A stretch of DNA of 15,522 nucleotides. Source: Candidatus Bathyarchaeota archaeon. GTDB lineage: Archaea > Thermoproteota > Bathyarchaeia > Bathyarchaeales > Bathycorpusculaceae. Location: NCBI GenBank assembly GCA_963768425.1, contig CAVYHV010000016.1, positions 1 to 15,522 of the forward strand. Reading direction: 5' to 3'. The notes beneath the pieces are model-generated. The model was not told the origin of the DNA, searched no databases, and saw only the letters and a list, made by a program, of their open reading frames with translations. Made by a program: the position numbers and the translations under genes. Positions within the stretch are counted from its first letter, which is position 1. Each line of letters opens with the position of its first letter. This document shows positions 6,765 to 10,002 of this stretch, piece by piece.

Positions 6765-8006
6765 TTAATGTCTGTTCGGGAACGCAATTCCCACGCCTGA
6801 CGATGGCGAGGGTGAGCGTTTTAGTTGCCAAGCGGCTAATGCGAGAGCGATAACTGCGTCGTCATGGTAGCCTTCGGGTGCTCCATACTGCACGTTGCCG
6901 CTTCGGGTAGTCTTGTACCCGTACAGCTTGAGCTCGTTAATCAAAACTGGAATCGGCGGGATTGTGAGCTGGTGGTTTTCAATCATTATGCTGAGGTTTT
7001 CGATGAGGTCTTTTTTTGTGGCGTTGGTGAATTTGTAGCCGTCCACATGCACTTTCTCTCTGCAGAGTTCGTCTTCGATTGGATCGCCAACTCCGGTGCT
7101 GTCAATTAGCAAACGGGCATCATAGTTCTGGGATAGTTGAACGATGCGTTTTCTTTGAAATACCCAATCCAACTCATTGAATCTGTCAAAGGCAACCAAG
7201 TGACCATCAATATCCAAGACAATTAGAACCGTGAAATCTTCGAGCTTTGCAAGGTCGCCGCCCATGACATACTTCTTATTTGGCTGAGGAAGCTCAAAGC
7301 CGCCTTCAACAATGCGGTCAACTCCTCGGAATACACTGCCGACGTCTTCTAAGAACTGTGCCAAAACCTCTTGACGATAAGCCAACTCAGGCATATCCCG
7401 AGCAAAAGAGGCAATTTCGGCTGGATCCAAGTACGGGTTGCTTGCACTTGGGAAGCTCCAGCTTTTGTAATCTGTTTGTTTAGGGTCTTGCCCGCGAGTC
7501 CAAAGCTGGAAATACCAGTTATGCCCTCTGGGAGTGCCCGTGAAGAAGGCGATGCCTTTCTCATCCATCAAAGCAGGCCTAAGAGCCAAGGTCCAGGCTT
7601 CTTCAGCAATTTGTGCGCCTTCGTCAACCCAAAGAACCTTTACGCCTTGGCTACGAAGTGAATCGGGGTTGTCTGCGCTCTTAAACCAAACATGCCGATT
7701 GCCCAGCAAAATCACGTGACGGTCTGCACGGTGGATTTCCTCGATTAGCTCACCTGGACAATAGTTGAAGAATTCGCTCCATTGCCGCTGGGTATGCCAA
7801 TAAGTGGGTGCAACTGCGAAGCCGACGATTCCTAATTTTTCTTTGCCTTCGCCTTGCTGCCACATTTGCCTTATGAATTCGTTGGCGCCCGCGACGGTTT
7901 TGCCCCAGCGTCGTCCGCAGTTGAGCACTCGGAACCTTGCGGTGCAGTAGTGGAATTGGCATTGTCCTGGATGGGGTTTGTATCTGATGCGTATTGTTTT
8001 TTGCAT
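6765..8006 (-). CDS. terL: Terminase large subunit
   Basis: PHPGQ adenine-binding motif, Walker A GRRWGKT, Walker B LWVDE, coupling motif GTP, and RNase H-like nuclease motifs GGDLAKLEDFT, IDSTGVG, HDDAVIALALA. Confidence 0.96.
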   Translation of the reverse strand: MQKTIRIRYKPHPGQCQFHYCTARFRVLNCGRRWGKTVAGANEFIRQMWQQGEGKEKLGIVGFAVAPTYWHTQRQWSEFFNYCPGELIEEIHRADRHVILLGNRHVWFKSADNPDSLRSQGVKVLWVDEGAQIAEEAWTLALRPALMDEKGIAFFTGTPRGHNWYFQLWTRGQDPKQTDYKSWSFPSASNPYLDPAEIASFARDMPELAYRQEVLAQFLEDVGSVFRGVDRIVEGGFELPQPNKKYVMGGDLAKLEDFTVLIVLDIDGHLVAFDRFNELDWVFQRKRIVQLSQNYDARLLIDSTGVGDPIEDELCREKVHVDGYKFTNATKKDLIENLSIMIENHQLTIPPIPVLINELKLYGYKTTRSGNVQYGAPEGYHDDAVIALALAAWQLKRSPSPSSGVGIAFPNRH

Positions 8007-8397
8007 ACTTCAGGGTCTTCCCAACGGATGTTGATTTCTTCAGACTGGGCTTGCTCTGTTGGTTTGGCGCCGCTAAGCTCTGCGAGTTCAATGTTAATTT
8101 GGCGCATAAGATTCAAAGCTGCAATCCGTGCCCGTCGCTTTTGGCTTGGCTGTACATGAAGCTGGCTTTACGGTACAACTGCACATGACAGTTCTTAGCC
8201 TTCAGCAGAGCTTCGGTGAATTCCTGCAGAAGAGGCTGCCATGAAGCTCTGTGAGCCATCTCTCGATACACCGTGGCGGTGTGACAGCAGAATTTGATTG
8301 ATGTTTCTGCAACAATTTCTTTAAGAGTTAAGCCGTCTCCTTCGAGCTTTAGCTCAAAGAGGCGTCTTTCAAGCAGATCTTTATCCAATAAAATCAC
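7871..8397 (-). CDS. Putative terminase small subunit, split by a 1-nt deletion near 8131-8133
   Basis: Track ORFs 8113..8397 (N-terminal HTH: GLTLKEIV...ATVYRE) and 7871..8116 join into ...AKSD(x)ARIAALNLMRQINIEL...EEINIRWED if one base is restored. Immediately upstream of terL. Likely start TTG 8388. Confidence 0.7.
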
Positions 8398-8882
8398 TTC
8401 AACTGCAGATTTTGCGAATTTTTAGGCACATACTTTAATGAGACCGTTAAGCGACCGCGGCTGTTTGATCTGACGAGTTCTCGGTTTATTCTTGTGTCGC
8501 CTCTGCCATGGCTGCCATGACCAACACGTTTAATGATCCAGTTCCCAAGGTCTCCGCGAACCAGCTGCGGGTTACTCGTAATTAGATAGAACGGCAGTCT
8601 GGTTTGGGATGTGTAGAGCTCTGCGATAAAGTTCAGCAGACGCTTCCCAACGCCTATCCCTTGATAGTCAGGTAAGAACCACAAGACGGCTAACCCGATA
8701 ATAATTTGCTTTCATACGCACGTGTGCTACAGCGATAAAGGCAATGGGTTTTTGGTTATACATCGCTGCGTAGCATCTGACTCCGGCGCCAAGTTTACTG
8801 TTTAGATAGTGATATTGCCGAAACATCTGCCACAGGGAACCGCCGCACCGATAAACTTGGAGCTCAACGGGCGGCCGACTTC
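8394..8882 (-). CDS. Mom-like GNAT acetyltransferase domain (no start codon of its own at the domain boundary; extra base near 8674)
   Basis: The -1 frame relative to the ATPase reads SRPPVELQVYRCGGSLWQMFRQYHYLNSKL...RVSRLVVL. After a 1-nt shift it continues PDYQGIGVGKRLL...TSNP. HYL plus the acetyl-CoA motif QGxGxG. Confidence 0.8.
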
Positions 8883-9487
8883 TTTTTTTCTGCTAAACTC
8901 CATTGTGTCCGTGCAGAAAACCCAATCGGGATCAAGCCAATCGATAACATCATAGTGGCATGTAACAGCAATGAATTTCTTGTTTGTTCTTCGGACGGCT
9001 TTGCTTATGGCATAGGCGCTAACTTTAGCAATCTCACGGTCTACGACGCTTGTAAATTCGTCAAATACGATTTGTGGCTGCTCTAGACTGAGAGCTCTTG
9101 CGATGTCTACACGCATTTTCTCTCCTTGGCTGAGGGCATCGTAGCTTTTGAGCCAATCAGGGCGGTGAAGCAAAACCAACGCTGCAGAGGTTCTTTGTTA
9201 TCTCGTTTACCTGTTGTCCTTCTGGAAAATCGTCGAGAATAGATTCATGGGTGTAGGCAAAAGCCTTTGATGTAGCTGTCAGCGAAGAGAGTTTTGGCTA
9301 TGCTTGTTTTACCAGTGCCGCTACGACCAACTATGACGCCGATCTGCCAAGTGTTATCCTCAATCGGAATTTGTCCAGTGAAGTGTTTCTCCATCTTGCA
9401 ATCAACGAGTGTGAAGCTGCCGATGACTGATTGCGCTCGGAAACTGTTTGGCTTATTCCAGGTTCTCACAAAGTCAAAAGACGGCAT
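8802..9487 (-). CDS. Soluble ABC-type ATPase of the phage ABC-GNAT type, interrupted by two +1 indels (9259-9262, 9160-9162)
   Basis: Walker A GRSGTGKT, signature LSQGE, Walker B IVFDE, D-loop TSVVD, H-loop VTCH. The missing middle (AYTHESILDDFPEG...LCSVGFASPPDWL) is in the intervening frame. No permease gene nearby. Confidence 0.88.
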
Positions 9488-10002
9488 TTGTACCCCTCAC
9501 CTGTTAGTTTGTTGAAGATGGCTTGTTGGTGAACCTCATCTTCGCATTCAAGTACAACCTCAAAAGTCGCAGCAAGCGTTATGCCTTTTTCTTCGCTCAG
9601 AAGGTTTTTGAGTTTCTCATCGGAAACCATAACCAAATACTTGAGTTCTTCTTCCTTTCCCGCTTCGATAATGCGTTCATATTCGGCCCTGTCAAGTTCA
9701 GGGTCATGCTTGCCTCTGAGCTTGTTTAAGACCTGTCTGAGTAATCTGCGGTCAACATCTTCTACTGGTAGGCGGATAACTGAGACTTCAGCCATGCCCA
9801 AGGCTTTAGCGGCTGTGTAGCGTTGTTCTCCGTCAGCGATTAAGAGATCCTTGTTGGTTATGATGGGAACGATAAAGCCCCATTTCTTGATAGAAGTTTT
9901 GAGGCGTTCGAGCTGGTCTTTGCTCATCTTATTTGGGTTCTGCCCATCCGTCTTAACGTCGCTGATCTTTACCGTTTCAGCGGCTGGAATAACTATTGAC
10001 AT
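9466..10002 (-). CDS. ParB/Sulfiredoxin N-terminal domain protein
   Basis: NPN.M...QLERLKTSIKKWGFIVPII...IADGEQRYTAAKALG is a ParB-N motif with GEQR in place of GxHR. No HTH. The small C-terminal domain overlaps the ATPase start. Confidence 0.9.
   Translation of the reverse strand: MSIVIPAAETVKISDVKTDGQNPNKMSKDQLERLKTSIKKWGFIVPIITNKDLLIADGEQRYTAAKALGMAEVSVIRLPVEDVDRRLLRQVLNKLRGKHDPELDRAEYERIIEAGKEEELKYLVMVSDEKLKNLLSEEKGITLAATFEVVLECEDEVHQQAIFNKLTGEGYKCRLLTL

Follow-up and report, generated by a model that had tools for sequence, protein, structure and literature searches.

The window analysed here, a stretch of 15,522 nucleotides (nt), is one complete 15.5-kb contig (C16) of a 2.96-Mb Bathyarchaeia genome assembled in 33 contigs. 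Its minus strand carries the head module of a tailed virus, and within it lies a gene (9487-8394) that combines a divergent ABC-type ATPase with a putative GNAT-type acetyltransferase. The two parts are read in different frames: the GNAT segment follows the ATPase in the -1 frame, at a run of seven A residues (A7). An earlier note on this DNA had interpreted the junction as a candidate programmed -1 ribosomal frameshift, yielding two products, the ATPase alone and an ATPase-GNAT fusion.

The ATPase-GNAT junction and the encoded domains

The features of the junction, including its open reading frames (ORFs), are the following.

8802..9487, minus strand: ATPase zero-frame ORF (ATG 9487-9485, stop TAA 8804-8802)
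8883..8889, minus strand: slippery heptamer A_AAA_AAA, candidate -1 shift site, in zero-frame phase
8876..8882, minus strand: spacer GAAGTCG, 7 nt from heptamer to stem (columns 20-26 of alignment A3)
8842..8875, minus strand: predicted GC-rich stem-loop (RNAalifold consensus of 7 pairs, -10.95 kcal/mol)
8394..8892, minus strand: putative GNAT-type acetyltransferase ORF, -1 frame (begins to be open at 8892, stop 8396-8394)
8802..8882, minus strand: two-frame overlap, holding the 24-residue zero-frame tail and the GNAT N-terminus

In the codons of the ATPase frame, the heptamer (8889-8883) stands within AGC AGA AAA AAA GAA GTC (S R K K E V), that is in X_XXY_YYZ phase. The 5′ arm of the stem, GCCGCCC (8875-8869), pairs with GG (8849-8848) and GCGGC (8846-8842), leaving U8847 bulged, and an extra pair G8868-C8850 is possible; the minus-strand letters are GCCGCCCG at 8875-8868 and CGGTGCGGC (= CGGUGCGGC) at 8850-8842. 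The zero frame terminates as ...CGRCFGNITI*, with its stop at 8804-8802, and the -1 frame is translated at the junction as QKKRSRPPVELQVYRCGGSLWQMFRQYHYLN. A TAG at 8895-8893 shuts the -1 frame just ahead of the A run, and no ATG, GTG or TTG was found in that frame between this stop and the conserved RPPVELQVYRC strand. The earlier note had given the coordinates and letters of the A7, spacer, stem, zero-frame tail and -1 frame exactly, and was also right that the GNAT frame has no start at the boundary, no ATG, GTG or TTG preceding the conserved strand. An Rfam scan of 8600-9100 gave no match at E ≤ 1.

The pieces of the window gene are collinear on phrog_11143 (357 positions), at 11-69 and 102-200 for the ATPase and at 196-266 and 265-355 for the GNAT. 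The ATPase pieces matched Pfam ABC_tran (E 3.6e-4, below the cut-off) and AAA_22 weakly, and many NCBIfam ABC models below the cut-off. Invariant motifs in alignment A1 are G..SG.GK (Walker A), LS.G.K.R (signature) and VFDEFTSVVD (Walker B/D-loop). Foldseek, run with a two-domain model, returned ABC nucleotide-binding domains only, with HlyB, MacB and MJ0796 as top matches (E about 2e-08). Judged by these motifs and this model, the N-terminal domain is a divergent ABC-type ATPase. Because no transmembrane partner was seen for it, we conclude that it is not a transporter. The GNAT pieces map on phrog_7693 'acetyltransferase' (E 2e-09) and gave a weak match to Acetyltransf_7 (E 0.0015, below the cut-off), and the GNAT of a paralog matched a RimI-like model (E 3.9e-06, below the cut-off). 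The ORF also holds an acetyl-CoA-type motif, YQGIGVGKRL (motif tested: Q/R-x-x-G-x-G/A), and the C-terminal domain of the AlphaFold (AF2) model described below has a strand-helix pattern. The weak profile matches, together with this motif, suggest that the C-terminal domain is GNAT-like.

Conservation, coding constraint and RNA structure at the junction

Runs of exactly seven A or T occur 1279 times in the genome, so a lone A7 is not unusual, and it is conservation that raises the site above chance. Relatives were gathered as the best 80 of 540 viral loci (IMG/VR) and the best 80 of 477 genome loci; 171 loci were classified in all, by means of tblastn anchors placed on either side of the junction. 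Both anchors were found in 168 loci, and no pair in the other 3. The GNAT lay in the -1 frame in 121 of the 168, in frame in 45, and in the +1 frame in 2, these last being one-A variants of neighbours (L042 with A11, L097 with A8). The -1 layout was present in 78 of the 80 genome loci, which come from nine differently labelled series of metagenome-assembled genomes (MAGs), and in 35 of the 80 viral contigs. Homologous loci do break at the same point, the opposite of the uniformly in-frame fusions by which the earlier note would have been refuted, and heptamer phase, 7-nt spacer and stem are kept throughout the A7 clade. It is because the same break recurs at the same junction in 121 of 168 paired loci, with a stem that is always paired in the A7 clade, that the site stands out.

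After removal of duplicates, 154 distinct junctions remained (115 in the -1 class, 37 in frame and 2 in +1). The 115 distinct -1 junctions have A7 (66), A9 (39), A10 (3), A8 (2), A6 (1), T7 (2), T5 (1) or no run (1). The in-frame junctions comprise 35 with a perfect A10, one copy on contig C6 of the same genome as the window, and one Gordonia phage devoid of a run.

Five further copies of the ParB/ATPase-GNAT module, at 66-77% nucleotide identity, are found in the genome that holds the window (C9:889-1949, C14:7097-8151, C6:221993-222959, C28:100023-100957 and C14:276210-276587). At C14:7097-8151, the ATPase ORF (227 aa) and the GNAT ORF are both intact and overlap by 124 nt, the sole discontinuity of this copy being a -1 step at ATA AAA AAA AAG. 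Three other copies make the -1 step at an A9 run, and the C6 copy reads through owing to one extra base located 60 nt downstream, compared with its relative L160. Up to six or seven of the best 80 genome loci came from single related MAGs. Given these numbers, and the six copies present here, Bathyarchaeia genomes carry many related proviruses or provirus remnants.

The split layout is also found in isolated phages that have no long homopolymer: Oenococcus vB_OeS_unk162, Streptococcus 315.4, MismyG and Javan420, and Lactococcus P335. Their ATPase ORF, of 225-226 aa, ends in ...IIII*, the GNAT N-terminus lies over the ATPase tail in the -1 frame, and in none of the five is there a start codon ahead of that N-terminus in the -1 frame. 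Plain in-frame fusions without a run occur in Gordonia, Burkholderia phiE255, Porphyromonas, Leptospira LE3 and one faecal phage. In Javan420 (L173), a further break of the GNAT frame was seen around 1985-2000, at an A-rich stretch ..AAAAACAAAAAATAAAAAG.., and because of it this prophage copy seems damaged. The records of five phages (L008, L009, L010, L172, L173) label the ATPase 'ABC iron siderophore transporter' or 'oligopeptide transport system', and give the GNAT as a short hypothetical or GNAT ORF beginning at or after the ATPase stop. The conserved GNAT N-terminus consequently goes unannotated in them. The present analysis corrects both points: the transporter labels are misleading, and the GNAT N-terminus has been missed or truncated.

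Reading the window gene itself requires four frame changes, not one. Compared with the nearest relatives, L101 (95% identical) and L014 (93%), it has four private 1-nt insertions, near 9258-9263, 9159-9163, 8674-8675 and 8419-8423, and the next gene has a private 1-nt deletion at 8133/8134, which makes five private single-base indels within 1.2 kb. The first two insertions divide the ATPase ORF into three frames, the other two break the GNAT ORF, and those near 9258-9263, 9159-9163 and 8674-8675 account for three of the four frame changes. The A run is the same in all three sequences, both relatives having A7. Four public runs from four studies were examined as Logan contigs, in which rare variants are dropped. 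The four insertions were absent from these wherever the contigs covered them, and no indel was found at the A7 run in the contigs bridging it, which come from three studies (X1 records 3 and 4; X2 records 19 and 20; X10 record 15). Since relatives and public contigs share the A7 but lack the insertions of the window, the A7 break is ancestral. For the remaining breaks, either a faulty consensus or decay of this provirus copy is responsible. As assembled, and because of its four further private insertions, the window copy could make neither product.

These data also settle several points of the earlier note. It had suspected a local excess of indels, which is real (four insertions and one deletion) and does not include the A7. 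Its caveat that the A7 might be a miscalled A8 falls away, as the nearest relatives and all bridging contigs have A7, and its proposed check of the A run, made here on public contigs, revealed no indel there. In treating the gene as interrupted by a single frameshift it was correct for the A7 break and incomplete for the window copy, whose further private breaks it had merely hinted at. In general, these MAG provirus copies are dotted with single-base indels. In L101, the closest relative, which belongs to a different MAG, the terminase gene carries three private 1-nt insertions, at places matching 7052, 7193 and 7281 of the window, where the window and L014 agree.

Loci were counted as intact when they had at least 185 open ATPase codons upstream of the junction and at least 125 open GNAT codons downstream. 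Otherwise intact were 102 of the 115 distinct -1 loci; 11, the window included, had further breaks, and 2 ran off the locus. Codon-position entropy in the A7 clade was 0.35/0.21/1.29 for the ATPase and 0.62/0.43/1.47 for the GNAT, a pattern that points to purifying selection on both ORFs. A -1-frame stop begins at most 6 nt ahead of the run in 86 of the 115 distinct -1 junctions and overlaps its first A's in 24, and a conserved R-P motif lies two or three codons past the run. With the stop just ahead and the motif just behind, the shift could happen only on the run. The offset of the zero-frame stop is identical in all 115 junctions (TAA in 79, TGA in 36). Third-position entropy of the GNAT frame was 0.55 in the overlap (26 codons, from the run to the zero-frame stop), compared to 1.29 upstream (99 codons) and 1.47 downstream (113 codons), a drop with a Mann-Whitney p of 5e-09. 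A natural in-frame homolog (L034, 363 aa) was modelled with AF2 (predicted local distance difference test score, pLDDT, 75). Residues 205-208, at the junction, are a linker of low confidence in this model, and the part homologous to the overlap supplies the C-terminal domain with its first strand (211-216) and helix (219-226). By this model, a GNAT begun downstream of the overlap would be without that strand and helix.

As to its position, the off-frame stop (xTA A, xTG A or xTA G) falls over the YHYL-[NSDK] codons in all 115 -1 junctions (8804-8802 in the window). By eye, an off-frame stop over YHYL was also seen in plain in-frame fusions, those of Gordonia (CTA GAC), Burkholderia (TTG AAA), Leptospira, Porphyromonas and the faecal phage. 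In the A7 clade, synonymous suppression reaches past the stem arms up to this stop.

All 66 distinct A7 runs and both distinct T7 runs begin at codon position 3. In the 66 A7-clade sequences, the stem was paired in 462 of 462 cells: six of the seven pairs never vary, and the remaining one is CG in 64 sequences and UG in 2. The six third-codon positions within the stem arms all have zero entropy, versus 2-6% of third positions elsewhere. The stem was present in 64 of 64 A7/A8 junctions, with a minimum free energy of about -19 to -20 and z of about -2.1 to -2.3 (A7 class mean z -2.27, 55-nt windows, mononucleotide shuffles). Mean z was -0.26 at A9 junctions, 1 of 36 having the stem, and -0.47 at in-frame A10 junctions, where it was found in 0 of 33. 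The consensus structure of the A9 class (39 sequences) contained 0 predicted pairs. The T7 loci (L055 and L072/L075/L083) read CGT TTT TTT, followed after 6-7 nt by GC stems of their own, CGGGGC/GCCCCG and GGGCG/CGCCC, which are built from other codons than the A7-clade stem. The T7 loci are independent of the A7 clade, with an in-phase heptamer and GC hairpins of their own. In four Streptococcus and Lactococcus phages, a closing stem CCCAC/GUGGG was predicted in all, with z of -0.75 to -1.64.

A long-range stem, pairing the region just past the run with the Trp codon of W..F..YHYL, was considered for the A9 class and rejected. Pairing each locus with its own partner gave a mean of -7.6, and pairing it with the partners of other loci a cross mean of -6.6 (mean rank 0.40, not significant); good scores were confined to the Bathyarchaeal A9 subclade (L002, L012, L092-L094; rank 0.03-0.11).

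The in-frame A10 fusions were found in 35 distinct IMG/VR contigs (within L030-L091), whose junction, at about 2600, reads G CAA AAA AAA AAT AGA CC. TAG or TAA stands in the -1 frame straight after the run in 30 of 36. With this stop directly behind the run, one slip in the A10 class would give the ATPase alone (...QKKK*), the mirror image of the split class.

Proposed ribosomal slippage and its alternatives

The reading that we favour, with moderate confidence, is that the junction is a programmed -1 ribosomal frameshift site from which both the ATPase alone and the ATPase-GNAT fusion are made. Most ribosomes would stay in the zero frame past the ATPase, add the 24-residue tail and stop at 8804-8802; the product, the ATPase alone, would be about 227 aa long in intact relatives. 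A fraction would pause over the GC hairpin 7 nt downstream with two Lys-tRNAs on A_AAA_AAA, the tRNAs would slip back by one base, and reading would continue as ...SRKK-RSRPPVELQVYRC... into a fusion of about 360 aa; other phages encode this very polypeptide in a plain in-frame gene. The two-product interpretation of the earlier note is thereby supported, through the conservation of the A7, the -1 layout of homologs, and the phase, spacer and stem that are kept. The slip would be ribosomal, the fusion would be the minor product, and the ratio of the two would matter. ABC domains act as dimers, so that a mixture of products would yield dimers with zero, one or two GNAT domains. The ratio could then matter through mixed dimers bearing one GNAT, or by limiting a DNA- or protein-modifying activity.

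Several observations weigh against this reading. Covariation in the stem, a check proposed by the earlier note, was not seen: no compensatory change was found at any of the 7 pairs, so that the stem is supported by invariance only, and conserved residues (RPP, RCG) are encoded in both of its arms as well. As the A7 clade forms a single lineage, the 66 of 66 runs in phase come close to one observation. The window sequence folds, over 96 nt, no better than its dinucleotide shuffles (z -0.64, 56 of 200 shuffles being as good), and a second computation gave z -0.54. In the lactic-acid-bacteria phages a canonical heptamer is missing, and they carry GGTTTTTC or TTTTAC..AAAGGGC instead. The window copy is broken at places other than the A run. 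Finally, relatives with A8 to A11 runs lack structure and the in-frame class keeps a perfect A10 (35 of 37 distinct), as would be expected from slippage of the polymerase.

Programmed transcriptional slippage would have the RNA polymerase add one A (A7 to A8, A9 to A10), so that part of the mRNAs encode the fusion in one frame and the ribosome decodes normally. This is the main rival, which for the clade of the window we consider rather unlikely. In its favour, the homopolymer varies among A6, A7, A8, A9, A10, A11 and T7, structure downstream of the run is missing from the A9 and A10 classes, some loci differ from their neighbours by a single A (L042, L097), and in the in-frame class the conserved A10, with an off-frame stop next to it in 30 of 36, is such that one extra A would give the ATPase alone. 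Bacterial dnaX genes and insertion sequence (IS) elements use A9-A10 runs for transcriptional slippage, and bacterial work indicates that A7 is short for it to be efficient. What polymerase slippage does not require is that every 7-nt run be in ribosomal phase and be followed 6-7 nt downstream by a GC stem, as is the case in two unrelated lineages, nor does it suit the lactic-acid-bacteria phages, which have T5 or C5 only. For the 7-nt runs we therefore favour the ribosome, since all of them are in tRNA-slippage phase and the T7 loci have GC stems of their own. For the long-run relatives (A9, A10), polymerase slippage seems at least as likely.

Two separate proteins without any recoding, with the GNAT made from an internal or non-canonical start or left as an untranslated remnant, is what phage annotators assumed when they drew a downstream ORF from at or after the ATPase stop, and most members of the A7 clade do have an ATG in WQMF. 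This Met is not conserved (WQVF, WRQF and WKSF also occur), and the -1 peptide upstream of it is (R-P-x-[IV]-[ED]-[LVI]-x-[VI]...C), aligns with the in-frame fusions and corresponds to the first strand of the fold. From the -1 stop up to that strand there is no ATG, GTG or TTG, and the purifying selection on the GNAT ORF speaks against a remnant. We regard this explanation as improbable. Phase variation at the DNA level, in which replication slippage on the A run would toggle virus genomes between split and fused, could draw on the existence of -1 and in-frame homopolymer classes and of one-A variants. It is nevertheless very improbable: the run is exactly 7 long in each of the 66 distinct A7-clade sequences, which come from many assemblies, two A8 variants and one A9 variant arose by substitution with the frames kept, and the public contigs, which drop rare variants, displayed no length polymorphism. 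Most improbable of all is an artefact, namely a true A8 and an ordinary in-frame fusion hidden by a homopolymer miscall in a noisy assembly. The five private indels of the window, those of the terminase gene in its close relative, and the plain fusions of Gordonia, Burkholderia, Porphyromonas and Leptospira phages would be in keeping with it. Against it stand the A7 of both nearest relatives and of bridging contigs from three studies, and the -1 layout of 121 of 168 loci, including isolated phages without any homopolymer. Moreover, a simple fusion would show neither a zero-frame stop at fixed offset in 115 of 115 junctions nor a synonymous suppression confined to the overlap.

Beyond the programmed ribosomal shift proposed for the A7 junction, we tentatively raise a broader possibility, to which we give somewhat less than an even chance: the whole ATPase-GNAT family would be a two-way slippage switch at the domain junction, with either the split form (A7 or T7 plus hairpin; A9 or A10; T5) or the fused form (A10 plus off-frame stop) encoded, and the other product obtained by slippage. 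The selected trait would then be the ATPase-to-fusion ratio, not either protein alone. The heptamer plus hairpin would be far more widespread than any other -1 ribosomal frameshift signal of Archaea, with several provirus copies per Bathyarchaeia genome, and would have evolved at least twice.

Gene neighbourhood and known recoding systems

Along the head module, the genes are arranged as follows.

9466..10002, minus strand: ParB N-terminal-domain gene (Pfam ParB_N E 2e-08, above the cut-off; PHROG ParB-like families)
9487-8394, minus strand: ATPase-GNAT gene
minus strand: small ORF pair between the GNAT gene and the large terminase
8006-6765, minus strand: large terminase
6748-5276, minus strand: portal
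minus strand, head module: scaffold-like protein

The site thus lies in the head-module region of a tailed provirus in a Bathyarchaeia archaeon. The ParB gene is immediately upstream of the ATPase gene, overlapping its start by 22 nt, and is a neighbour of the ATPase gene in phage records too. Between the GNAT gene and the large terminase, the ORF 7750-8397 (minus strand) is split by the private deletion at 8133/8134, as comparison with L101 and L014 shows. An intact paralog of this ORF, 172 aa long (L003:942-1460), had no match in Pfam or PHROG; on position alone, the ORF may encode a small terminase.

In the Mu-like Burkholderia phage phiE255 (L175, gp29-gp30), the fused gene comes after the tail-fibre genes, which we take to be the place of mom in Mu. 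General Pfam, PHROG and NCBIfam scans, which included no direct comparison with Mom, gave no Mom-related match. In phiE255 and in the Porphyromonas phage (L174), the fused gene follows tail or tail-fibre genes and is itself followed by a formyltransferase gene, unlike the ParB/terminase neighbourhood. The constant ParB neighbour, the proximity of the terminase and the formyltransferase next in these two phages suggest a putative action on DNA or on a DNA-bound protein.

We found no frameshift described for the ATPase-GNAT family in the accessible portions of the literature, among them PMC3711429, PMC5009743, PMC10274946, PMC13229309, PMC12839542 and PMC8211752, supplementary tables being outside this scope; PMC3711429 lists its 146 candidate clusters in its supplement only. 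The word 'frameshift' was counted 0 times in two Bathyarchaeia-virus papers returned by a literature search. Mechanistically, the site belongs to a known kind. What appears to be new is the gene family, its setting in archaeal viruses, and the side-by-side occurrence of split, A10-fused and plainly fused states. More than 100 natural variants of the heptamer-spacer-hairpin cassette are available in archaeal proviruses, and cultivable bacterial-phage relatives with the same split layout (Lactococcus P335 and the Oenococcus phages) make the prediction testable at once. With the three states side by side, the family offers a natural system in which to ask when ribosomal and when polymerase slippage is used.

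Members of phrog_11143 known from actinophages as 'ATP binding cassette-like protein' (for example gp2 of Gordonia phage Axumite, 401 aa) belong to the same family and share the ParB neighbour and the terminase proximity; unlike the split loci, each is encoded by one continuous ORF, whose junction is free of homopolymers. IS1 and IS3 transposases (OrfA-OrfAB) shift on A_AAA_AAG or A_AAA_AAA with a hairpin or pseudoknot, the fusion being the active enzyme, made in limited amounts. Heptamer class, similar spacer, GC stem and a mobile element are common to both cases, but the proteins are unrelated and there are no inverted repeats or transposase here.

In E. coli dnaX, tau and gamma are produced by -1 programmed ribosomal frameshifting on A_AAA_AAG with a downstream stem-loop, and in Thermus dnaX by transcriptional slippage on an A run. 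As in dnaX, an A-rich slippery run stands at a domain boundary of an ATPase gene, accompanied in E. coli by a hairpin, and would give two products with a common N-terminal ATPase; in dnaX, moreover, lineages reach the same outcome by ribosomal or by polymerase slippage. The gene family is unrelated, however, and the dnaX shift truncates, whereas in the -1 class here it would extend the ATPase into the GNAT, and only the in-frame A10 relatives would truncate. A stimulator of the Shine-Dalgarno type was not seen upstream, though no search aimed at it was made. The tail assembly chaperone gpG/gpGT of tailed phages, including haloarchaeal tailed viruses, is likewise made through a -1 frameshift. 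The resemblance lies in a conserved -1 shift in tailed viruses and proviruses of bacteria and archaea, a short major product and a C-terminally extended minor one, and the usual annotation as two ORFs. The difference is that the ATPase and GNAT are other proteins, sit beside ParB and terminase genes outside the tail module, and are also commonly found as plain in-frame fusions. The accessible portion of PMC3711429 mentions dnaX recoding, and passages on tail-gene frameshifts are found in those of PMC8211752 and PMC3711429.

In Archaea, as far as the consulted part of a 2021 review goes (PMC8211752), the sole demonstrated -1 programmed ribosomal frameshift is that of Saccharolobus solfataricus fucA1 (A_AAA_AAT), next to a few inferred cases in virus tail genes. 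By the same partial account, fucA1 and the present family have in common an archaeal host, an A-rich heptamer, overlapping ORFs that correspond to in-frame fusions in relatives, and a proposed downstream stem. They differ in that fucA1 is a cellular glycosidase of a single species, whereas here it is a viral family, with more than 100 distinct natural variants and several copies per genome.

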